Origin: Shigella phage vB_SboS_Gloob
Strand: one strand, 5' to 3'
DNA: 64,000 nucleotides
Sequence record: OL615011
Position numbers and translations under genes: made by a program. This document shows, piece after piece, positions 2,758 to 46,173 of the stretch. The stretch's first letter is position 1. The number at the start of each line of letters is the position of its first letter. Under the pieces are notes generated by a model. That model was not told the DNA's origin and did not search any database. It saw nothing but the letters and a program-made list of their open reading frames with translations.

Positions 2758-2788
2758 TAGTCCTGTTAACCAACGTGGGAACTACAAG

Positions 2789-4351
2789 ATGAACAAGATT
2801 GACGAAAAGATCCTCAAGCATTTGAAGGCAGGCATGAGCCAGAGCGCAATTGCTACTCTGTTGGGCATACCCCGCTCGACTGTACAACGTGTTGCAGACA
2901 CGGAATTCGGTGTTAACCCGTTATCGCTGAAATCTCTGACCACTGAAGAGATTCAGCAGATTCAGGTGAAGAGCAAGGCTGGTGAAAGCAACCGCGCCCT
3001 GGCTGAGTTCTTTGCTGTAAGCGCCAAGACCATTGCTCGCGCTCTGCTGGTCCGGATTACTGAGGAGGAAAACAAGGTAACTGTGATCTCTCCTATCAAG
3101 CAGGAAGAGCAGGAAGTATTCGAAGTACAGCCTGGTGGAACAGCCAAAGACAAAGATGGCTCAGAATGGTATGTTGGGGCATATCTACCGAACCACAACA
3201 AGTATCTGTGTCTCACCAACGACGGTAATTTCACAGGGGCTTTCTTTGAAAAGTCTGAATTGACTCCTGTTGAAGGTGATAGTCGCGCTTTCGGTGTTGA
3301 AGCTATCGGCAAGATGGCAGAAATTTCTGTGGCGCTGTCAGAAGGTGCGGATAAAGTTCCGAGCAACGTTGAAATCAGCGTTGTGGTTGACGGGGAAACC
3401 TATCCTATTCGTGGATCCTTGGATGCCCGTCGTCGTGTTGGTTACTTCGATGCCATCCTCGGCCGCACCCTGCGCCTGGCTCTGTCTTCTGTAGAATTCA
3501 CCGTCGCTATCAAAGACGTTGAAGAAGTGGCTGGTGACAAGAAGACCAAGCAGGACTTCGGCGCGAAAGACCTGGACGTGTTCCTGAACGAACACCAGAT
3601 CCTGATTCTGCCTGACAGCGTTGTTATCGCGATTGATGGCAAGCCGGAAACGATCACCACTTCACATCCAGCATATGACCGCATCGTACAGGCGATCAAA
3701 GACAAAGATGTGAAGCTGGCATACTCGCTGATGCGCCCTCGTGATGCCATCGCGAAGTACGCTGAAGGTCTGGTAGACGTGTCTGACAACCGTGTCCGCT
3801 GGTCTGGCCATGACATCACAGGCACATCCATCGCCAAGCGCGTACTGGCGCTGATGCTGAAGGGTGACTTCCACAACCTGGACCGCATGGCGAAGTTTAT
3901 GGACAAAATGTTCCAGAACCCGTCGGCTGCTCTGGTTCAGTCTGGGCGCATCTATGAGTTCATGGCGTACTCCGACATCGAAATTGACGACGATGGTGAC
4001 ATCATCCTCTACAAATCGGTGCGCGGCAACTACATGGACAAGCACAGCAACACGATCAGCAACGCCCCAGGCACTATCGTGCGCATGGCTCGCTCATTCG
4101 TGAACGACAACAACTCCGACCTGTGTTCATACGGTCTGCATGTGTGCTCCCTGGCCTACCTGAAGGAGTGTTTCGGTTCTGTGGGACAGCGTGTCGTTCG
4201 CTGTAAGCTGAACCCGAAAGATATCGTGTCTATCACCAACGATTACGGCTCCAGTAAAATCCGCTGCTGTGAATACATGGTGTTGGATGATTACACGGCT
4301 GAGTACAACCGTCAGCACAAGTCTATTGACGTGACAGGTCTGTACAAGTAA
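2789..4351 (+). CDS. rIIB: rIIB-like protein
   Basis: C-terminal region (NAPGTIVRM...CSYGLHVCS...RCCEYMVLDDY) closely resembles T4 rIIB as recalled; N-terminal HTH-like segment; ATG at 2789 inside longer track ORF. Confidence 0.75.
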   Translation: MNKIDEKILKHLKAGMSQSAIATLLGIPRSTVQRVADTEFGVNPLSLKSLTTEEIQQIQVKSKAGESNRALAEFFAVSAKTIARALLVRITEEENKVTVISPIKQEEQEVFEVQPGGTAKDKDGSEWYVGAYLPNHNKYLCLTNDGNFTGAFFEKSELTPVEGDSRAFGVEAIGKMAEISVALSEGADKVPSNVEISVVVDGETYPIRGSLDARRRVGYFDAILGRTLRLALSSVEFTVAIKDVEEVAGDKKTKQDFGAKDLDVFLNEHQILILPDSVVIAIDGKPETITTSHPAYDRIVQAIKDKDVKLAYSLMRPRDAIAKYAEGLVDVSDNRVRWSGHDITGTSIAKRVLALMLKGDFHNLDRMAKFMDKMFQNPSAALVQSGRIYEFMAYSDIEIDDDGDIILYKSVRGNYMDKHSNTISNAPGTIVRMARSFVNDNNSDLCSYGLHVCSLAYLKECFGSVGQRVVRCKLNPKDIVSITNDYGSSKIRCCEYMVLDDYTAEYNRQHKSIDVTGLYK

Positions 4352-4402: not shown

Positions 4403-4708
4403 ATGTTAACCACTGATGTCTACTTCAAATATGCGCGACAGACGTATGGCTCGCATCGTGTGACAGACAAATTCTTGATAGACTCCTTCCAGTTTGAAGG
4501 GGAGATGAGGGAATACTCACACAAACAATTCCCACCCCGTGAAGTTCATGGTGACCAGTTCGTGAAATTGTTCTGTCGCTGCGGCGGTTGTGACTTCACA
4601 GATGATGGGTATGCAATGCACGTATACTGCTGCAATTGCTGTGGTAAATACATAACAGTCTATAGGAGAACCAATCATGGCGAAGAAACCCGAAACCAAG
4701 AAAGTTGA
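4403..4708 (+). CDS. hypothetical Cys-rich protein
   Basis: 101-aa ORF with CRCGGC...CCNCCG cysteine cluster; overlaps next gene start. Confidence 0.4.
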   Translation: MLTTDVYFKYARQTYGSHRVTDKFLIDSFQFEGEMREYSHKQFPPREVHGDQFVKLFCRCGGCDFTDDGYAMHVYCCNCCGKYITVYRRTNHGEETRNQES

Positions 4709-8551: not shown

Positions 8552-10465
8552 ATGTCTGATAAAATTGATATTGAACGCAAGTACAAGAAGCTCACGCACG
8601 TCGAGCATATCCTCCTTCGCCCAGAGCGTCATCTGGGCAGCATCCGTTCGTCTGTTGGTACGGTGTGGGTGTACGACCCAACCAAAGACCAAGTCATTTT
8701 CCGTGACAACTTTGAGTACTCCCCCGCCCTGATCAAACAGTTTGATGAAATCATCACCAACTGTGTTGACCACAGCAAGACGCCTGAGGGTAAATCCCTG
8801 ACGGAAATCACTGTCACGGTTTCCCCGATGAACGGTCAAATCATCGTTGCCGACAACGGGGGTATCCCTGTTGTGAAGCACGGTGTTACCAACGAGTGGT
8901 TGCCTGAGATGCTCTTCGGCTCCCTGTATGCAGGCAGCAACTTCAACGACGAAGACGAAGAGTACAACAACCAGAAGTCTGGTGGGCAGAATGGCGAAGG
9001 GGCTTCGCTCGTCAACGTGTTCTCAAAGTGGTTCCGTGTTGCTACCAGTGATGGCAAGAAGTCTTATGCCCAGCTGTTTGAAGACAACATGAGCAAGAAG
9101 TCTAATCCGGTCATCAGCAATACGCCGAAAGAGTTCGGCACCACCATCGCCTGGATTCCTGACTATGCTCGCCTGGGTGTCAAAGGGCTTGACCAGAACA
9201 ACCTGCTGATGATCTATCGCCGCGCGTTTGAAGTGGCTGCGTGTAACCCGCGCCTGAAGGTTGTGCTGAACGGGAAGCAAATCCGGATTGACCGCTTTGG
9301 TCACTTCGTTGATTACTTCCATGCTGGTTCCGCTGTTGATGAATCTGGTGAATGGTCGGTTGCTGTAGCCCCTTCATCCGGTACGTTCATGCACGCATCA
9401 TACGTGAACTCTATTGCCACCCACATCGGTGGTCCTCACGTTGATTATGTCGCCGACCAGATCGTGGCTGCGATTCGTCCTCAGCTGGTGAAGAAGTTCA
9501 AGACCGAGCTGAAACCTGCCATGATCAAGAACCACATGTCCTTGTTCATCGCCGCCGACATCAACAACCCGCGCTTTGACAGCCAGACCAAGGAGCGCAT
9601 GACCACTCCTGTAAGCCAGTTCGGTACGTCGTACAAACCGAGTGACAAACTCATCCGCAAGGCGCTTGAGTTCGTTATGGCTGGTCTGAGCAAAGAACTG
9701 GCTTCCCTGCGCAATGAGCAGGATGATGCTGAGTTTGAAAAGGCCAAGAAGGATATCAGCAAGCGGGATTATCGTGAGATTGAGAAGTATTACCCGGCGA
9801 CCGCCCGTGGTGACCGCAGCGGTTGCTCCCTGTTGCTGACAGAGGGTGATAGCGCCTCCAATCCTATCCTGAACGCCCGTGACACCAAAAAGATCGGATT
9901 GTTCCCGCTTCGTGGTAAGTTCATCAACTGCCTGAACGCCCCGCGCACAAAGGTGATGAACAATGAAGAGTTCAAGAACCTGTGTACGATTCACGGCGGC
10001 GCAGTGCCCGGTCAGCCACTTGACATCAGCCGCTACCCACAGACTGTTGTGGCTACCGATGCGGACGATGACGGCATTCACATCCGTGGGTTGTTGATCA
10101 CCCTGTATTGCACCTACTGGCCGGAGTACGTCCGTCAGGGCAGGCTGAAGCTCCTGCGCACCCCTTACATGCGTGTATGGTGTGGTAAGGTGATGCATGA
10201 GTTCATGAACAACGCCGAGTATGAGGAGTTCCTGAAGACGCCTGATGCCAAGAAGATCACGAAGAAGAAATATCTGAAAGGTCTTGGCGGTAACAGCACT
10301 GAAGACTTCAAACGTATTCTAAACAACCTGGATGCGTATACTACGACGGTCACGCTGGACGATGGCTACCAACAGTCACTGAAGAATGGCTTCGGTGATG
10401 AGGCCGCCGATTACCGCAAAACCTGGTTTAGCGATGTTTGCCTGTTTGAAACTGAGGATGAATAA
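8552..10465 (+). CDS. type II DNA topoisomerase large subunit (GyrB-like; ATPase plus TOPRIM fused, T4 gp39+gp60 equivalent)
   Basis: GHKL ATPase motifs (ITNCVDHS, DNGGIPV) and TOPRIM motif (LLLTEGDSA, DADDDGIHI) in one 637-aa ORF. Confidence 0.85.
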   Translation: MSDKIDIERKYKKLTHVEHILLRPERHLGSIRSSVGTVWVYDPTKDQVIFRDNFEYSPALIKQFDEIITNCVDHSKTPEGKSLTEITVTVSPMNGQIIVADNGGIPVVKHGVTNEWLPEMLFGSLYAGSNFNDEDEEYNNQKSGGQNGEGASLVNVFSKWFRVATSDGKKSYAQLFEDNMSKKSNPVISNTPKEFGTTIAWIPDYARLGVKGLDQNNLLMIYRRAFEVAACNPRLKVVLNGKQIRIDRFGHFVDYFHAGSAVDESGEWSVAVAPSSGTFMHASYVNSIATHIGGPHVDYVADQIVAAIRPQLVKKFKTELKPAMIKNHMSLFIAADINNPRFDSQTKERMTTPVSQFGTSYKPSDKLIRKALEFVMAGLSKELASLRNEQDDAEFEKAKKDISKRDYREIEKYYPATARGDRSGCSLLLTEGDSASNPILNARDTKKIGLFPLRGKFINCLNAPRTKVMNNEEFKNLCTIHGGAVPGQPLDISRYPQTVVATDADDDGIHIRGLLITLYCTYWPEYVRQGRLKLLRTPYMRVWCGKVMHEFMNNAEYEEFLKTPDAKKITKKKYLKGLGGNSTEDFKRILNNLDAYTTTVTLDDGYQQSLKNGFGDEAADYRKTWFSDVCLFETEDE

Positions 10466-10466
10466 G

Positions 10467-10913
10467 ATGGAATACCCGCTAACTCATCAAATGCAGCCAA
10501 CAAAAGACACGTGCATGTCAACGTGTCTGGCGATGTTGCTTGGTCGCCCGGTTGCTGAGGTTGCTGAAACATGGCATGAAAGTTTCGCAAATTGGGAAAC
10601 CACGATTGGTGACGTTCTTTGTATGGAAGGGGTTCCGTTCTTGTGTGGGAAGGGAGTCAACCAAACTGTCACCATCTATCATGATTATGTCTACCTTCTT
10701 TGCGTGCCAAGTCCAGCAACGCCAGGGATATTGCATCAGATCATTATGGATACCCGAGGCGACAAAGTTGTCATACATGACCCACTGAAGGGTACTGGCA
10801 AAAGATATTACACCCTAGATGAAGACGACAAATCTCCTCTGGCGGTAAAACTTGAAACTTGGATTGTAGACTACATTGTCGACCCGTATGAAGTGGGAGG
10901 TTATCGTGGGTAA
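10467..10913 (+). CDS. C39-like papain-fold cysteine peptidase domain protein (putative)
   Basis: HQMQPTKDTCMSTCLAMLLG resembles the Q...DCGxACLAM active-site region of C39 peptidases; later His residues (YHDYV, VVIHD); GAGGA RBS. Confidence 0.5.
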   Translation: MEYPLTHQMQPTKDTCMSTCLAMLLGRPVAEVAETWHESFANWETTIGDVLCMEGVPFLCGKGVNQTVTIYHDYVYLLCVPSPATPGILHQIIMDTRGDKVVIHDPLKGTGKRYYTLDEDDKSPLAVKLETWIVDYIVDPYEVGGYRG

Positions 10914-10914
10914 G

Positions 10915-12246
10915 ATGGTTGCCAAGAGCATTACTGTAACGGACTTTGTCAACACTGACCATAAGCAGTTTTCTGTGGTCAACAGCATCCGTCAAATCCC
11001 TCAGCTGATTGACAGCCTCAAGCCGAGCCAGCGCAAGATCCTTTTCGCTGCTCTTGAGTACAACAAGGAGGAGATCGTTGACCGCCTTGGTATGTTCGCC
11101 GCCGCCCGGACCAACTACAAGTCTGGTGGTGAGAACATGAGCGGCACTATCGTGAACATGGCTCAGGGGTTCCCAGGCACGAACAACATCCCGTACTTTG
11201 ACCGCGACGGCCAGTTTGGTTCTATCATGGGGCGCGACGCGTCGTCGGCACGTTACATTTCGGTGGCTGTATCTGATGTTATCCGCAAGATCTTCCGCAA
11301 GGAGGATGAGGGCATTTTAGAATACAATTACCTTGGTGAAGAAAGACTGGAGCCGAAGTTCTTCCTGCCCATCCTACCCATGTTCCTGGTGAATGGGATC
11401 AATGGTATCGGCACCGGATATTCCACCGACACCCCGTGTCATTGCGTTAAGTCCGTGCTCAGTGCCCTGAGAGCGCTTCTCCGTGGCGAAGACCCGAAAG
11501 ACTTAAAACCGTACTGGAACGGCTACAAAGGGGAGACAGGCTATACTGAGGAAGGAAGAGCATACAGTCGCGGCATCTTCCGTCGCGTCAATGCCACCAC
11601 CCTGCATATCACCGAAGTCCCAGTGGGTTGGTTCGCCAAGACCTATGAGACCAAGGTGTTGCTGCCTCTGTACAAGGCTGGTATCCTGACCGAGTACGCC
11701 AACGACACGACCGAAGATGGCTGGGATATCACGGTTGTATTCAAGCGGGGTGAACTCTCTAAGCTGAGTGATGAACAGGTTGAGCAGATGTTCAAGTTGT
11801 ACTCTGCTAACAAGCCTGTTTGGACAGCATGGGATGAAGACGGGGTAATCCATCGTTATGCGGGCTGGCAGGATATGTTGCTGCCGTTCTTCAATTATCG
11901 CCTGTCACGGTATGAAGACCGTCGCCAGTATCTGTTGAAGGACATGGCAGACAGGATCCGCAAGCTGGGTGACCGGGCGGTGTTCATTGAATGGGCGACG
12001 CGTGTTGATCTCCGCCAAAAGATTGACGTGCTGAAGTCTCTGTTCATGCAGGACTATCCGGACTTTGGCGGTGATCTTGACGAGTTGTTCAAGATGCCGC
12101 TGTCGTCTATTACTCTGGACGCCCGTGAGCGCCTACTCAAGCAGATTGAGAACCTTGAAGCACAACACAAGGAATTAAGTAAGAAAGAGGACATCGATCT
12201 TTACACTGAAGACCTTGATGACCTTGAAAAGGCTCTTGGCCTATAA
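10915..12246 (+). CDS. type II DNA topoisomerase medium subunit (GyrA-like, T4 gp52-like)
   Basis: N-terminal region (LKPSQRKILFAALEY...ARYISVAVS...LPMFLVNGINGIGTGYSTD) resembles T4 gp52; start taken as ATG after upstream stop. Confidence 0.8.
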   Translation: MVAKSITVTDFVNTDHKQFSVVNSIRQIPQLIDSLKPSQRKILFAALEYNKEEIVDRLGMFAAARTNYKSGGENMSGTIVNMAQGFPGTNNIPYFDRDGQFGSIMGRDASSARYISVAVSDVIRKIFRKEDEGILEYNYLGEERLEPKFFLPILPMFLVNGINGIGTGYSTDTPCHCVKSVLSALRALLRGEDPKDLKPYWNGYKGETGYTEEGRAYSRGIFRRVNATTLHITEVPVGWFAKTYETKVLLPLYKAGILTEYANDTTEDGWDITVVFKRGELSKLSDEQVEQMFKLYSANKPVWTAWDEDGVIHRYAGWQDMLLPFFNYRLSRYEDRRQYLLKDMADRIRKLGDRAVFIEWATRVDLRQKIDVLKSLFMQDYPDFGGDLDELFKMPLSSITLDARERLLKQIENLEAQHKELSKKEDIDLYTEDLDDLEKALGL

Positions 12247-18960: not shown

Positions 18961-19175
18961 TTGTGATCACTTCAGGCTACACCATCGACCTGTATTGTGA
19001 ATGCTCCGACTGCAAATCATGTAGTTGGGCTTGGGAAGAACACCACCCCAAATGCGGGTTCAAGCAGTACTCTGGTGAGACTTGGGGTGAGTGTGTCAAA
19101 CAGGCGCGAGCAGACGGCTGGCAAATCGGGCGTGACAGATATACCTGCTACGCCCCTGGCCACAAAAGAAGTTAA
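18957..19175 (+). CDS. small Cys-rich hypothetical protein (non-ATG start assumed)
   Basis: CECSDCKSC...C...C cysteine pattern; only TTG/GTG starts available after upstream stop. Confidence 0.3.
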   Translation: MIVITSGYTIDLYCECSDCKSCSWAWEEHHPKCGFKQYSGETWGECVKQARADGWQIGRDRYTCYAPGHKRS

Positions 19176-19786
19176 GGCAATAGAAGTCCATCATCCCGCT
19201 CCGTTGGGGCGGGTTTAATCTCCTTCCGCATCTGTTCCTTCAGCACCCTGACGCGTTCGGCTTGTCGGCGGTCTTGCATCTCCATATCCCGTTTCTTCTT
19301 CGACTTCAGCTCAAACTGTTTGCGCACATCCGGATCTTCACCTGGAACAAGATGCTCTTCAGTCCAGATAATGAACTTCCAGTTCTTCTTAGCACACAGC
19401 TCACGGGTGGCCTCCCACTTGGCAGAGTTGACCAGCCAGGTTCGCATCGCATTGTTGAATGTCGACTCCTTCATGTTCGGAGTCTTCTTCGGCTGCTTGA
19501 TCTGGTCTTTGGGCTTGATCTCAATGAGGGTGACCTGCAGTTCCTCTTGCCCTTCACGGCGCGTCCAGACCTTGAGGTCCATGAAGTAACGATGGGTGCG
19601 CCCGTCGACTGGGGAAATGTAAGGGATTACAGTCTCCTCGCTCGACCACTTCACTATCGCGGAGTTCATATCACAGAACTTGAAAGCCACCAACTCCAGC
19701 GAAGAGCGGAAGATGATGTTGTTCACATTCCCCTGATACTTCTTGGGATTAACCGGGGTATACTTCCCCTGAAGATAGTTGCTCAT
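19172..19786 (-). CDS. PD-(D/E)XK-like nuclease (putative) with basic coiled-coil tail
   Basis: YFMDLKVW ... TLIEIKPK fits D...E-x-K nuclease core; lysine/arginine-rich C-terminus. Confidence 0.5.
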   Translation of the reverse strand: MSNYLQGKYTPVNPKKYQGNVNNIIFRSSLELVAFKFCDMNSAIVKWSSEETVIPYISPVDGRTHRYFMDLKVWTRREGQEELQVTLIEIKPKDQIKQPKKTPNMKESTFNNAMRTWLVNSAKWEATRELCAKKNWKFIIWTEEHLVPGEDPDVRKQFELKSKKKRDMEMQDRRQAERVRVLKEQMRKEIKPAPTERDDGLLLP

Positions 19787-19836
19787 AATTTAGTCCTAAA
19801 TAGCCATAACACTCTATCTATTTAAGGGCTGAGACC

Positions 19837-20805
19837 ATGTCCGACTTCAAAAAGACAATCGATAAGATCAAAGTTCTGAACACGAAGGGATTGTCCCAGG
19901 CTCAGAAGCAATTGACTTATCCCCTGGACGTCACTGGGGGTAAGACCCTGGGACACTATGTCCTATTCAACATCAACCGCATCTCCGGTTCATCTTACGG
20001 TGACACGGCTACCCAGACTGTCGAGAACCCAATACAGAACCCTCTGGGGAATACTCCTGTGGTCTATGGGTCCAAGTCTGGTTCCATCACCAAATATGCA
20101 TGGGCGCGTCACGTTCGCTCGAACGAATCCATAGTCCTGTGTATGCCAGAGTCCATTACAACCAACTATGGCGTTGGCTGGAATGGCAGTGAGCTGGGGC
20201 TGGCTGGAATGGGGGCACAGTTCCTTTCCCGCGCCGCCCAAGACATGACTCAGTTTAAACTGGGTGATGCATTGAACGTCGGGAAGGAGATGGGGCGATT
20301 CGCTGCCACCAAGGCCATTCAGTCGGCCTCTGAGTCTATTCCGTTCCTGCCGACCATCAACGCCCATGACACCCTTGAGTTGTTCACAGGCACCATGACC
20401 AACCCGTATGTGGAGATGATCTTCCAGGGCGTCCGCAACCGTGAGATTCCATTTACATTCAAATTCACGCCGCGATCTCAGAAGGAAGCCAAGATGGTCC
20501 GCGAGATCATCCGTCTGTTCAAGATGCACATGTACCCTGAGTACAAGTACAACAAGAACTCCAGTGCCTTCTATCTGCATCCATCGACCTTTGATATCAC
20601 GTTCATGGTCAATGGTGAGCGTAACCAATGGCTCCACCGCATCTCCACCTGCGTGCTGTCCAACATGTTCGTCAACGAAACGCCGGACAGTTCATATGCA
20701 GTACACAAGGATGATGGGATCGTGTCTACACAGGTTGACATGACCTTCATCGAACTGGAGCCTCTGCATAAAGGGCGCTTTGAAACCGAAGGTGATAGCT
20801 TCTAA
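19837..20805 (+). CDS. putative tail/baseplate structural protein
   Basis: first gene of a plus-strand block ending in a tape-measure-like gene; no specific motif recognised. Confidence 0.5.
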   Translation: MSDFKKTIDKIKVLNTKGLSQAQKQLTYPLDVTGGKTLGHYVLFNINRISGSSYGDTATQTVENPIQNPLGNTPVVYGSKSGSITKYAWARHVRSNESIVLCMPESITTNYGVGWNGSELGLAGMGAQFLSRAAQDMTQFKLGDALNVGKEMGRFAATKAIQSASESIPFLPTINAHDTLELFTGTMTNPYVEMIFQGVRNREIPFTFKFTPRSQKEAKMVREIIRLFKMHMYPEYKYNKNSSAFYLHPSTFDITFMVNGERNQWLHRISTCVLSNMFVNETPDSSYAVHKDDGIVSTQVDMTFIELEPLHKGRFETEGDSF

Positions 20806-20816
20806 GAGAGGATGCC

Positions 20817-21371
20817 ATGAAATATTTTGAGAAGTTTCCCCTTGTTTGGCATCAATTGCAAGATGTCCAAGAGAATGATCAGGTGCTGTTACAGAACTTA
20901 ACGCGCCGGGTAATGATCTTACAGAAAATTAAGGACATCGAAGGGCTTCTCCTGCCGTATACGATCCAAGAGGGGGAAACCCCAAGGTCTTTCGCAGAAC
21001 GCGTTTACGGATCCTTCGAGTTGTTTTGGATACCTTGCCTGATAAACGGCATCATGGACATCAATAAAGACTGGCCGAAACCGGAACGTCGTATTGTTGA
21101 AGAACTGACTACAGACTATGGCATCGATGGTATGTGGGATACAGCCTATTATGTCGACCAGTTCAACAATGTGACTGACGCCCGTGCGATCAAATTTGCA
21201 TATAACCTGGACCTGGATGAGCCGTCCATAATTGCTAACTATGGTCTGACGGCAGTTTCATATCATGATGACGCAATCAGTAAGAACGAAGCCAAACGGA
21301 ACATCCAAGTACTCGACCCAGATTATGTGTCTTCGTTTGTCAATCAGCTGGAGCAGGAGTTGGCGAAATGA
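20817..21371 (+). CDS. putative baseplate/tail protein
   Basis: position within tail block; 184 aa. Confidence 0.5.
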   Translation: MKYFEKFPLVWHQLQDVQENDQVLLQNLTRRVMILQKIKDIEGLLLPYTIQEGETPRSFAERVYGSFELFWIPCLINGIMDINKDWPKPERRIVEELTTDYGIDGMWDTAYYVDQFNNVTDARAIKFAYNLDLDEPSIIANYGLTAVSYHDDAISKNEAKRNIQVLDPDYVSSFVNQLEQELAK

Positions 21372-26226: not shown

Positions 26227-27650
26227 TATGCAGACTCCAGCAGGAATACAATGTTTTCGATGTATGCTTTCTGAATCGCATAGACTTCATCCAGCGTGTT
26301 GGCCACTTTCTTGTCGATACGAATTTCAGCAAGGCGAGGAAGGAACAGTGACTTCAGCGCATCATCCGTCTTATCCTGTACGCCATTGGAGAGCACTGCG
26401 GCAATCTTGCCAATGTAGTCGCCCTGGTTCTCCCACATACGGAGTCTCAGCTCATCTGAGATCCCTGAGACGCCAACAACAAGCAAGCCATCGGAAGTCT
26501 TACACAGCAGGGAGCCAAAGGTCTTGGCGTGTTTACCTTTCTTGTCCGCCTCGTTGAAGCCCACGATTTCAAGGTCACACTCCACTTCCATCTTCAGCTT
26601 CAGACCTTCCGAGGAAGTCCCGTCTTCCCACGGCATGTCAGCAGCCTTACAGATCGTGCCTTCTTCTTTACGAGCCAGCGCGTCTTTGAAGTGGTCGACA
26701 GCTTCGGCAAATGAGTGAACAACACGGGTTTCCTGAACCTGAACCAGCCCATCTTCTCCGTGGAACATTTGCATGATCATGTCGAAGCGGGTTTCATACG
26801 GCAGGTCTACGCGCTCGGCGTTGAACCACTTCTCATAAGGTACGACATCCCACACCCGGTAGATCACCTGATAACGATCTTCCAGGGGTTCGCCAGTCTG
26901 AATCACGCTGTTGAGTTTGCCGTTGCCGACAGCGCGAGGTAGGATAGAATTCGACTTGAGGTCAACAACGAGTAGTTCGCCATGGAACACGCTCTCACCA
27001 ATCCCCGTATCATAGATGATGTCCTTGAACACCAGTGACAGATTGTCAACCGAACCGCCTGCGATAAGGGAACCGGAGCGAGAGCGGATCTCAGGCTCTT
27101 TGTTGTAACGGCAGATGATATTGGCGAACATACCGTCTGACTTCAGCTGGCTGTAGACGCCGCGCTTGAAGTCCATCTTCTTCAGCAGGTCAATCGTCAT
27201 GTTGTCATAACGATGATACGGAAGGATGTTGATCAGGCGTCCAGTGCCTCCGGCGGTGTTGAATGCAGCGTTGATGCCCTTCTCAGCAATACCCGCCTTG
27301 ATATCACGGTCCAGGATCATCTGGATGAGTTCGTGGTATTGGGGATCCATCTTCAGGGCAACAGAGGCCAGCAGGGCATCAGCCTTTTGACCACCGACAA
27401 GGCGCTGCGCCATCTGGTCGAGGACGTCATAGACTTCGCTGATGTCATCAGTCTTCTCACGGACGAGCATGCGAGGATACGCGCTGAGCTTCAACTCAGT
27501 CCGATAGAACGACGTCATTGGGTCATAGACATACTGCAGGAAGTCTGCCAAGTCTGGGTTGTTCTTGAATGCTTCGGCCAGCACAGCTTTCTTCGCATTG
27601 CTGCCTTTGGTTTCGCGAAGTCGGTGAACTGTTTCGAGGATAGGGATCAT
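26226..27650 (-). CDS. ATP-dependent DNA ligase (T4 gp30-like)
   Basis: adenylation motif KSDG (LKSDGMF); N-terminal region resembles T4 DNA ligase as recalled; 474 aa. Confidence 0.8.
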   Translation of the reverse strand: MIPILETVHRLRETKGSNAKKAVLAEAFKNNPDLADFLQYVYDPMTSFYRTELKLSAYPRMLVREKTDDISEVYDVLDQMAQRLVGGQKADALLASVALKMDPQYHELIQMILDRDIKAGIAEKGINAAFNTAGGTGRLINILPYHRYDNMTIDLLKKMDFKRGVYSQLKSDGMFANIICRYNKEPEIRSRSGSLIAGGSVDNLSLVFKDIIYDTGIGESVFHGELLVVDLKSNSILPRAVGNGKLNSVIQTGEPLEDRYQVIYRVWDVVPYEKWFNAERVDLPYETRFDMIMQMFHGEDGLVQVQETRVVHSFAEAVDHFKDALARKEEGTICKAADMPWEDGTSSEGLKLKMEVECDLEIVGFNEADKKGKHAKTFGSLLCKTSDGLLVVGVSGISDELRLRMWENQGDYIGKIAAVLSNGVQDKTDDALKSLFLPRLAEIRIDKKVANTLDEVYAIQKAYIENIVFLLESA

Positions 27651-27705
27651 GTGGTGTCTCCAGGGTTATATGTGCTGCTATTATAACCCTGGGGACTTCA
27701 ATAGA

Positions 27706-27912
27706 TTATTGGCGGGTGCGGGATCTTGCCTGGCTGATAATGAGGTCAACATGCGGAAGTCGGTCCAATTCCCTTCGGCGCTTGCGTTCCTTACGCCATT
27801 CATGGAATTTTTCGTCTAACATTTCTGTGTTGATGATCGTTGCAATGATGCCAAATGCTCCAACAAAGGTCAAGATCATTTTGATCGAGTCCATCATGAA
27901 CCCTCCGCCCAA
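27706..27912 (-). CDS. small single-TM protein
   Basis: TM helix ILTFVGAFGIIATIINT followed by basic tail. Confidence 0.45.
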   Translation of the reverse strand: MGGGFMMDSIKMILTFVGAFGIIATIINTEMLDEKFHEWRKERKRRRELDRLPHVDLIISQARSRTRQ

Positions 27913-28427
27913 ACAAAGCCGTATTTGTTCAGTAGATCCACAGTTTCACCACGGGCGCGAGCCACGATAGATTCCACTGATTCTTCCACCTCGAGCGGCG
28001 GGCAACCAGCCTTTTCATATGTGTTAAGCAAGAGAGCAAGTTCTTTTACGAACCCTCTTTGTTCCTCTCTTCCAAAGAACCACATCCGCAGATCGTCACG
28101 TTCCCCATGCTTGTTCAGATAGAACATATTCGCGCACACGTAATCGTTTTTCTGAACAACGCCATTTATCTCCGGCCAATGCAACCCAGTCATCGCATAA
28201 TTGAAGAATTCCGAAGGGGTGACTTCGTCCGACACATAATACAAACGGAAGTCACCGCTGGGACCATGTTTGCAAATTCTATCCAGCATTATTTTGTGGA
28301 TGTCAACACGGTCTCGCGTCAAGACTTCCCGTTTCTCTAGTCGACCTCTCAGCCAAGCACTACCAATACACAAAAGAACGAAAGCAGTAGCACCAGTGAG
28401 TATGCCGAAAGAATCAAGATTGATCAT
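27894..28427 (-). CDS. N-terminally membrane-anchored protein
   Basis: TM helix FGILTGATAFVLLCIGSAWL then about 150-aa soluble domain. Confidence 0.5.
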   Translation of the reverse strand: MINLDSFGILTGATAFVLLCIGSAWLRGRLEKREVLTRDRVDIHKIMLDRICKHGPSGDFRLYYVSDEVTPSEFFNYAMTGLHWPEINGVVQKNDYVCANMFYLNKHGERDDLRMWFFGREEQRGFVKELALLLNTYEKAGCPPLEVEESVESIVARARGETVDLLNKYGFVWAEGS

Positions 28428-45665: not shown

Positions 45666-46173
45666 TACTTTTCTCCAGTTCATAATCGCGCTCCACAACA
45701 TATTGGTAGACACGCATCTTAATATAGTCGGCACCACCTGCTGAAGACAGCACCCTCCATCCACTACTAAGGACATTCATCTTATATTGACCAACACCCT
45801 CTTGAAAATAACTTTTAATCTGTTCCAGCTTTCGCCCACGATGATAATACGAGATGAGTTCACCGATAACAATACAATCGGGATAATGTTTGTCAAGGGT
45901 ATCAATATTTCGGTGGACGTAGACAGGCAACACGTCTTCATCGTCGATAGGGCTGTAGTACGGGTCTACGATGACCACCTGTAGATCATACGACAATAAA
46001 TCCTTGACGCCCATACGACAGAACTTATAATCTTCGTGCTTCATTGCCACCTGGAGGATATTCTCTTTCTTGGCATAATCGGTCAGGAAGATAAAGAAGT
46101 CTGTGTTGGGATCGGGATATTGTATAGACAGTTCTTTGCCTATTTCACTAAAACAAAATCCGCGCATTTTCAT
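45643..46173 (-). CDS. hypothetical protein
   Basis: 176-aa ORF; contains VVIVDPYYSP segment. Confidence 0.5.
   Translation of the reverse strand: MKMRGFCFSEIGKELSIQYPDPNTDFFIFLTDYAKKENILQVAMKHEDYKFCRMGVKDLLSYDLQVVIVDPYYSPIDDEDVLPVYVHRNIDTLDKHYPDCIVIGELISYYHRGRKLEQIKSYFQEGVGQYKMNVLSSGWRVLSSAGGADYIKMRVYQYVVERDYELEKSNAKRKTR

Follow-up and report, generated by a model that had tools for sequence, protein, structure and literature searches.

Within the first 24.7 kb of a 64,000-nucleotide stretch of Shigella phage vB_SboS_Gloob (sequence record OL615011; hereafter the window, numbered from its first base, which is the first base of the rIIA start codon), a single gene runs against all of its neighbours, raising the question of whether it is an intruder or an ancestral part of the phage. 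The gene (19172–19786, minus strand; ATG at 19786–19784, TAA stop at 19174–19172) comprises 615 bp with its stop codon, the same length as the annotated gp4 genes of Ackermannviridae, and encodes a protein of 204 a.a. An initial annotation had described it as a nuclease-like gene and the only minus-strand gene between 1 and 24.7 kb, and had remarked that isolated genes of this kind in phages are often mobile or defence-related. We recovered the open reading frame with its ATG start, and its solitary orientation was borne out, the other minus-strand open reading frames in 1–24714 being shadows of longer plus-strand ones. In ChubbyThor phage (97% identical), the homologue is the sole minus-strand coding sequence among ~39 consecutive ones, in a run that begins upstream of rIIA and ends at the tape-measure gene, and it is likewise the only one over the compared stretch of Ag3 phage. 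The suggested origin did not survive: we judge, with a probability of about 0.93, that the gene is the Ackermannviridae orthologue of T4 gene 4, encoding the head completion nuclease (gp4), with the function carried over from T4. This identity is already known, as the gene is annotated in relatives and its T4 counterpart has been characterised.

The window belongs to the Agtrevirus group within the Ackermannviridae, and the 6 kb around gp4 share 96–99% identity with the Salmonella phages P46FS4, SW16-7, and SKML-39 and the Shigella phages ChubbyThor, MK-13, and Ag3. The plus-strand genes that precede gp4 encode a dCMP deaminase, a bPH_2 membrane protein, and a small Cys-rich product, while those beyond it, arranged head-to-head with it, encode the baseplate tail tube cap gp48 (19837–20805, plus strand; PHROG 230, 4.4e-114; Pfam T4_tail_cap), the baseplate wedge protein gp53 (20817–21371, plus strand; PHROG 232, 4.5e-58; Pfam Phage_gp53), a hub/tail protein, and a tape-measure-like protein (all by Pfam and PHROG). 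The Cys-rich open reading frame (18963–19175, plus strand, 70 a.a; PHROG 926), treated here as context only, is convergent with gp4, and the two overlap at their 3′ ends, as the initial annotation had noted, by the four nucleotides TTAA (19172–19175), which hold both stop codons. Its start is probably the GTG at 18963, since Ag3 orf00035 is annotated in this way and the PHROG 926 match implies such a start. The Cys/His-rich product (CxCxxCxxC ... HH..C pattern), which is encoded at the same position in Ag3 and Menlow phages, gave no Pfam or NCBIfam match and is probably zinc-binding.

The 3′ end of gp4 also holds a terminator-like hairpin on the plus strand (19195–19213, T-rich tail to 19223; gp4 codons 192–198), which matches a rho-independent terminator annotated at the equivalent position in Ag3 and is a putative terminator of the plus-strand early/middle unit. 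The hairpin is imperfect and was seen by consensus scan; a search for inverted repeats at seed 7 in 19100–19900 returned none. On the minus strand, no matching terminator turned up for gp4, and its late transcription may therefore continue, antisense, into the Cys-rich open reading frame and the membrane-protein gene. Further into the early genes, P46FS4 phage carries an extra 402-bp open reading frame (ORF148, nt. 1207–1608) directly upstream of its dCMP deaminase gene, which has no counterpart in the window at about 17.7–18.0 kb. The small early genes are thus the variable part of the region. We considered this difference as a presence/absence event at the gp4 locus and rejected it, given that the extra early gene is unrelated to gp4.

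The gp4 protein matched PHROG 218 ("head closure") at 8.3e-58 over profile positions 2–143 of 148, and residues 6–146 aligned with residues 4–142 of T4 gp4 (150 a.a) at 38% identity (BLASTP, 5e-31). Its only Pfam match was PF08722, the N-terminal domain of TnsA-like endonucleases (residues 41–143, nt. 19358–19666, minus strand; 1.1e-17, 64.7 bits against a gathering score of 26.5). Close homologues carry the UniRef name "Head completion nuclease", and "Gp4 head completion protein" is the existing annotation in Ag3, P46FS4, and ChubbyThor phages; the same gene appears as Ag3 orf00036 (YP_003358517), P46FS4 ORF145, ChubbyThor gp70, and core gene 12 of Vi01 phage. We noted no substantive difference between gp4 and these annotated Ackermannviridae proteins, with the relatives varying in nearby accessory genes only, namely homing endonucleases in Dickeya phages and the extra early gene of P46FS4. 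An NCBIfam scan of gp4 gave no match and is uninformative here, as its models are aimed at bacterial and archaeal genomes.

The nuclease core occupies residues 1–146 (19349–19786, minus strand). The initial annotation had recognised a PD-(D/E)XK-like core in two motifs, YFMDLKVW and LIEIKPK, and these supply three of the four candidate catalytic residues, D70 (19577–19579) in the first and E89 (19520–19522) and K91 (19514–19516) in the second; the fourth is E50 (19637–19639; all minus strand). The four residues form the E...D...ExK signature of the restriction-endonuclease fold, with the codons checked in the window sequence, and are invariant in an alignment of 27 homologues with identities down to 38%. 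An AlphaFold2 model built from this alignment (mean pLDDT 91.5) predicts an alpha-beta core, a long helix at residues 152–189, and a disordered stretch over the last 15 residues. Searched against the PDB with Foldseek, the model ranked Tn7 TnsA at the top (probability 1.00, E 8.4e-4), consistent with a restriction-endonuclease-like fold. The family profile retrieved nothing from PDB sequences at E ≤ 1, which indicates that a structure of the family has apparently not been deposited and that TnsA is too distant for HMMER. The HMM and structure searches proposed by the initial annotation thus both recovered a nuclease fold, and gp4 is a small single-domain PD-(D/E)XK nuclease of the TnsA-like subfamily.

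The likeness to TnsA (PDB 1F1Z and 1T0F) holds at the domain level only, covering the N-terminal catalytic domain (PF08722). The two proteins share 15% identity, and TnsA, at about 270 a.a, has a C-terminal domain that gp4 lacks. Near gp4, neither Pfam, PHROG, nor the ChubbyThor annotation indicated TnsB- or TnsC-like genes or a transposon context.

The likeness to T4 gp4 is closer. The four candidate residues align with E48, D68, E82, and K84 of T4 gp4, and the two proteins fall in the same PHROG and Pfam families. The T4 gene, too, lies head-to-head with a baseplate gene, the two being separated by about 50 nt in which late-promoter cores cross, and gp2, the partner of gp4 in T4 head completion, is also encoded in the window (DNA end protector; 40630–41334, minus strand; PHROG 429, 8e-68). 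The differences lie in the protein's C-terminus, where the window gp4 has a charged, helical extension of 58 a.a and a terminal LLP that T4 gp4 does not have, and in the gene order: T4 gene 4 heads a 4-2-3-1 unit facing gp53, whereas gp4 of the window is a one-gene unit facing gp48-gp53, with gp2 21 kb away. In T4 genetics, gene 4 has also been mapped as genes 50 and 65.

The family has been described by Iyer et al. as TnsA-like nucleases of the restriction-endonuclease fold (PMC7824862). As cited in PMC7824862, Benler et al. 2020 (Virology 543:7) reportedly showed that T4 gp4 has a non-specific DNase activity, which is needed for packaging/morphogenesis. In established T4 genetics, cited in PMC7824862 and PMC11895373, gene 4 mutants are blocked in head-tail joining. 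The gp4 of the phage P1 paper PMC9024508 is that of HK97 phage only and is unrelated. The published virion proteome of Sajous1 phage does not mention gp57, the gp4 homologue by a positional guess, in its main text.

A search by tblastn retrieved gp4 homologues in 2,544 phage records, spanning the Straboviridae, Kyanoviridae, and Ackermannviridae as well as Vibrio, Aeromonas, Acinetobacter, Campylobacter, Rhizobium, and Caulobacter phages, a number that places the open reading frame far beyond chance. Among enterobacterial Ackermannviridae, gp4 (at least 60% identity) was present in 278 records against 281 for gp48 (at least 80% identity), which is effectively one-to-one, and we noted no presence/absence variation of gp4 among relatives. 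In the closest records, the protein is 92–99.5% identical, with strand and position unchanged. The divergent junction between gp4 and gp48-gp53 is kept in Ag3, ChubbyThor, and P46FS4 phages, in the Klebsiella phage Menlow (Taipeivirus) and the Vibrio phage K356, and in the cyanophage S-MbCM6 (Kyanoviridae); in T4 phage, gene 4 lies opposite gene 53 with 47 nt between them. This divergent position is common to four phage families. Published core genomes concur, with gene 4 included in that of the T4-like phages (PMC2993671, Table 3) and a "putative head completion protein" in that of 150 enterobacterial Ackermannviridae (PMC10892097, Table 5). The gene order in the latter table, where a membrane-flanked domain protein is followed by the head completion protein and then the baseplate tail tube cap, matches that of the window.

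These comparisons bear directly on the explanations that the lone orientation first invites. An opposite-strand singleton among plus-strand genes with a nuclease fold could be a free-standing homing endonuclease, or another selfish mobile nuclease, inserted on the opposite strand, and T4-like and Ackermannviridae genomes are indeed rich in free-standing homing endonuclease genes, some of them near the gp4 locus. Such genes are recognised by their sporadic presence and a GIY-YIG, HNH, or LAGLIDADG domain, whereas gp4 sits at an unchanged position in essentially every relative (the 278 against 281 records above), is syntenic over four families, belongs to both published core genomes, and matched PF08722 only, with no match to any of those three domain types in Pfam. 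Its composition is also typical of the genome (GC 0.517 against 0.515 ± 0.018 in the other genes), with GC3 and the codon-adaptation index within about 1.5 standard deviations of those genes. A real insertion at the gp4 locus is seen in the Dickeya phage Ds3CZ, where a 738-bp homing endonuclease gene is present as a gene separate from gp4. On distribution, synteny, domains, and composition, a homing-endonuclease or mobile identity of gp4 is effectively ruled out, and the chance that we would give it is negligible. A nuclease that instead serves defence or counter-defence, for instance by degrading host or competitor DNA or excluding superinfecting phages, is scarcely credible. The PADLOC scan of gp4 matched none of 5,027 defence models at E ≤ 0.1, and with this empty result the defence identity was dropped; the fold matches to defence effectors reflect generic likeness to the restriction-endonuclease fold and lie far below TnsA. 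The gene also sits among late morphogenesis genes with a late-type promoter motif, and in its T4 orthologue the head-tail joining block known from T4 genetics (cited in PMC7824862 and PMC11895373) likewise speaks against this reading. Comparison of the locus among relatives, which the initial annotation had proposed as a check, found gp4 conserved in place in a family whose known role, on the T4 analogy, is head completion, a step of morphogenesis and not of replication. The conserved locus together with the known role refutes both the mobile and the defence-related reading.

The same nuclease fold could alternatively belong to a resolvase specific for DNA structure, with the branch-clearing role that gp49 (Endo VII) has in T4 packaging. 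T4 phage has both gp49 and gp4, and the phenotypes of their mutants are distinct. Another gene of the window (44532–45122, minus strand; PHROG 159, 1.9e-53), also with a late-type motif, codes for a RuvC-like Holliday junction resolvase. This enzyme covers branch clearing and so argues against gp4 as the packaging resolvase, as does the description of the T4 gp4 activity as a non-specific DNase (PMC7824862). We therefore hold a resolvase role to be very improbable and retain the head completion nuclease.

Mobile genes proper show, in this group of phages, the presence/absence variation that gp4 lacks. In Ds3CZ phage, the 738-bp homing endonuclease gene (nt. 2764–3501) separates gp48 from gp4 and is read in the gp4 direction, and a hypothetical open reading frame of 1,644 bp (nt. 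57–1700) separates gp48 from gp53; both insertions are missing from the window, and they indicate that the promoter junction was evidently a tolerated insertion site in Limestonevirus. Homing endonuclease genes of the HNH/MobE type occur in ChubbyThor (nt. 9957–10787 and 27371–28066) and Ag3 (nt. 11063–11690) phages, at sites preceding the gene for the large subunit of topoisomerase II and following that for the helicase loader, and are apparently absent from the matching positions of the window at about 8.5 kb and about 25.4 kb.

The spacer between gp4 and gp48 (19787–19836) measures 50 nt and contains two crossing late-promoter-like cores, a plus-strand TAAATAG (19797–19803) 34 nt before the gp48 ATG and a minus-strand TAAATAG (19824–19818) 32 nt before the gp4 ATG, together with a Shine-Dalgarno sequence for gp4 (AGGA, 19797–19794, minus strand). 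Its sequence in Ag3 and ChubbyThor phages is identical to that of the window. The spacer between T4 genes 4 and 53 carries the canonical late promoter TATAAATA on both strands, and the cyanophage spacer has a crossing pair as well. In Menlow and K356 phages, the core directed towards gp4 is degenerate (TAATTA), so the late-promoter assignment for gp4 is not uniform. Since a spacer with crossing TAAATA cores is common to T4 and the cyanophage, the minus-strand placement of gp4 reads as inherited with an ancestral junction of bidirectional late promoters, and from these sequence comparisons we take its orientation to be an ancient trait shared with T4 phage that bears no sign of insertion.

Across the whole window, the raw counts of CTAAATA, TAAATAG, and TATAAATA are not enriched, and a signal emerges only from a test of where the TAAATA core lies relative to start codons. 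TAAATA is rare, occurring 15 times on the two strands of the 64 kb, and 10 of the 15 copies sit 25–38 nt upstream of a start codon on the same strand, compared with a mean of 0.22 in this range under random placement, where 10 was reached in 0 of 2,000 trials. The copies include those at 4645, 5096, 19797, 19824, 41348, 41372, 45166, 47494, 49984, and 62036. The genes with an upstream copy include gp4, gp48, gp2, the gp54-like tail tube initiator gene (41388–42332, plus strand), and the RuvC-like resolvase gene, and TAAATA also lies ahead of two small open reading frames (4677 and 5132) just after rIIB. These motifs would act as late promoters, an interpretation drawn from their placement; a late-promoter transcription accessory protein is among the core-genome products of Ackermannviridae (PMC10892097, Table 5).

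The spacer between gp2 and the gp54-like gene (41335–41387) likewise has crossing cores, the plus strand carrying TATAAATA and the minus strand TTAAATAA, such that a head-completion gene faces a baseplate or tail gene across a compact, putative bidirectional late promoter twice in this genome (gp4/gp48 and gp2/gp54-like). A perfect 14-nt inverted repeat (GTAAATAGCCCATA / TATGGGCTATTTAC; arms 17 nt apart) occupies 45123–45167, in the gap that separates the RuvC-like resolvase gene from a gene of PHROG 3801 (45174–45776, minus strand). Each arm contains TAAATAG, the minus-strand copy lying 38 nt upstream of the resolvase ATG and the plus-strand copy directed antisense into the upstream gene, and the repeat shares the extended motif TAAATAGCC(C)ATAAC with the putative gp48 promoter (19797–19810). 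The repeat could form a hairpin, act as a bidirectional promoter, or do both.

These features suggest how gp4 may act in the life cycle. Its expression would fall late in infection and be driven by a late promoter of the T4 type, given the TAAATA core that precedes its ATG by 32 nt, with its promoter and that of gp48/gp53 presumably held within one bidirectional spacer of 50 nt. By analogy with T4, once the terminase has filled the head, gp4 would act at the portal on the packaged DNA, probably its end, working together with the DNA end protector gp2, after which the head would be competent for the neck proteins and the tail. Catalysis would proceed through E50, D70, E89, and K91 with a divalent metal, and the charged C-terminal helix probably has a role of its own, whether in binding DNA non-specifically, in self-association, or in portal docking. 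The homology, fold, conservation of catalytic residues, synteny, core-gene distribution, and promoter-motif placement of gp4 are direct results of the present comparison. Its nuclease activity and its requirement in morphogenesis are attributed from the T4 literature.

The only lineage-specific feature of gp4 is the C-terminal extension (residues 147–204, 58 a.a; 19175–19348, minus strand), which contains the predicted helix at residues 152–189 (19220–19333, minus strand; pLDDT about 88–96). The initial annotation had described this tail as highly basic, which fits the helix (net charge +6, pI 10.35, within a protein of pI 9.5) and not the extension as a whole, of which 50% is charged (K/R/D/E) with a net charge of only +3, so that highly charged is the better description. 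The extension is missing from T4, from cyanophages, and from most homologues, is found at full length only in enterobacterial Ackermannviridae, and is shorter in related Vibrio phages, with short Lys-rich tails in a few other lineages. It diverges faster than the core, with identities to Kuttervirus of 80–83% in the core and 64–66% in the tail, and to Vibrio phages of about 60% and about 13%, respectively. Its start, PGxDPxV(K/R), and the terminal LLP are kept in all aligned enterobacterial Ackermannviridae sequences, the LLP across five enterobacterial subclusters. As the extension has no T4 counterpart, the function of gp4 could differ in detail from that in T4. A speculative possibility, to which we give modest weight, is that the extension is a distinct functional module. 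As a docking peptide or a clamp on DNA, it could dimerise the nuclease or tether it to the portal or to the end of the packaged DNA.

For the reading of phage genomes, these results carry a correction, in that a lone nuclease gene on the opposite strand is by itself no sign of mobility or defence. The placed TAAATA cores offer a usable map of putative T4-type late promoters in this genome. The C-terminal helix may provide a handle on the docking site of the enzyme, an incremental question; if the extension is indeed such a module, Ackermannviridae would recruit or regulate the head completion nuclease differently from T4 phage. The orientation of gp4 itself appears to have been fixed by an ancient bidirectional late-promoter junction that extends from T4 phage to cyanophages to the Ackermannviridae.
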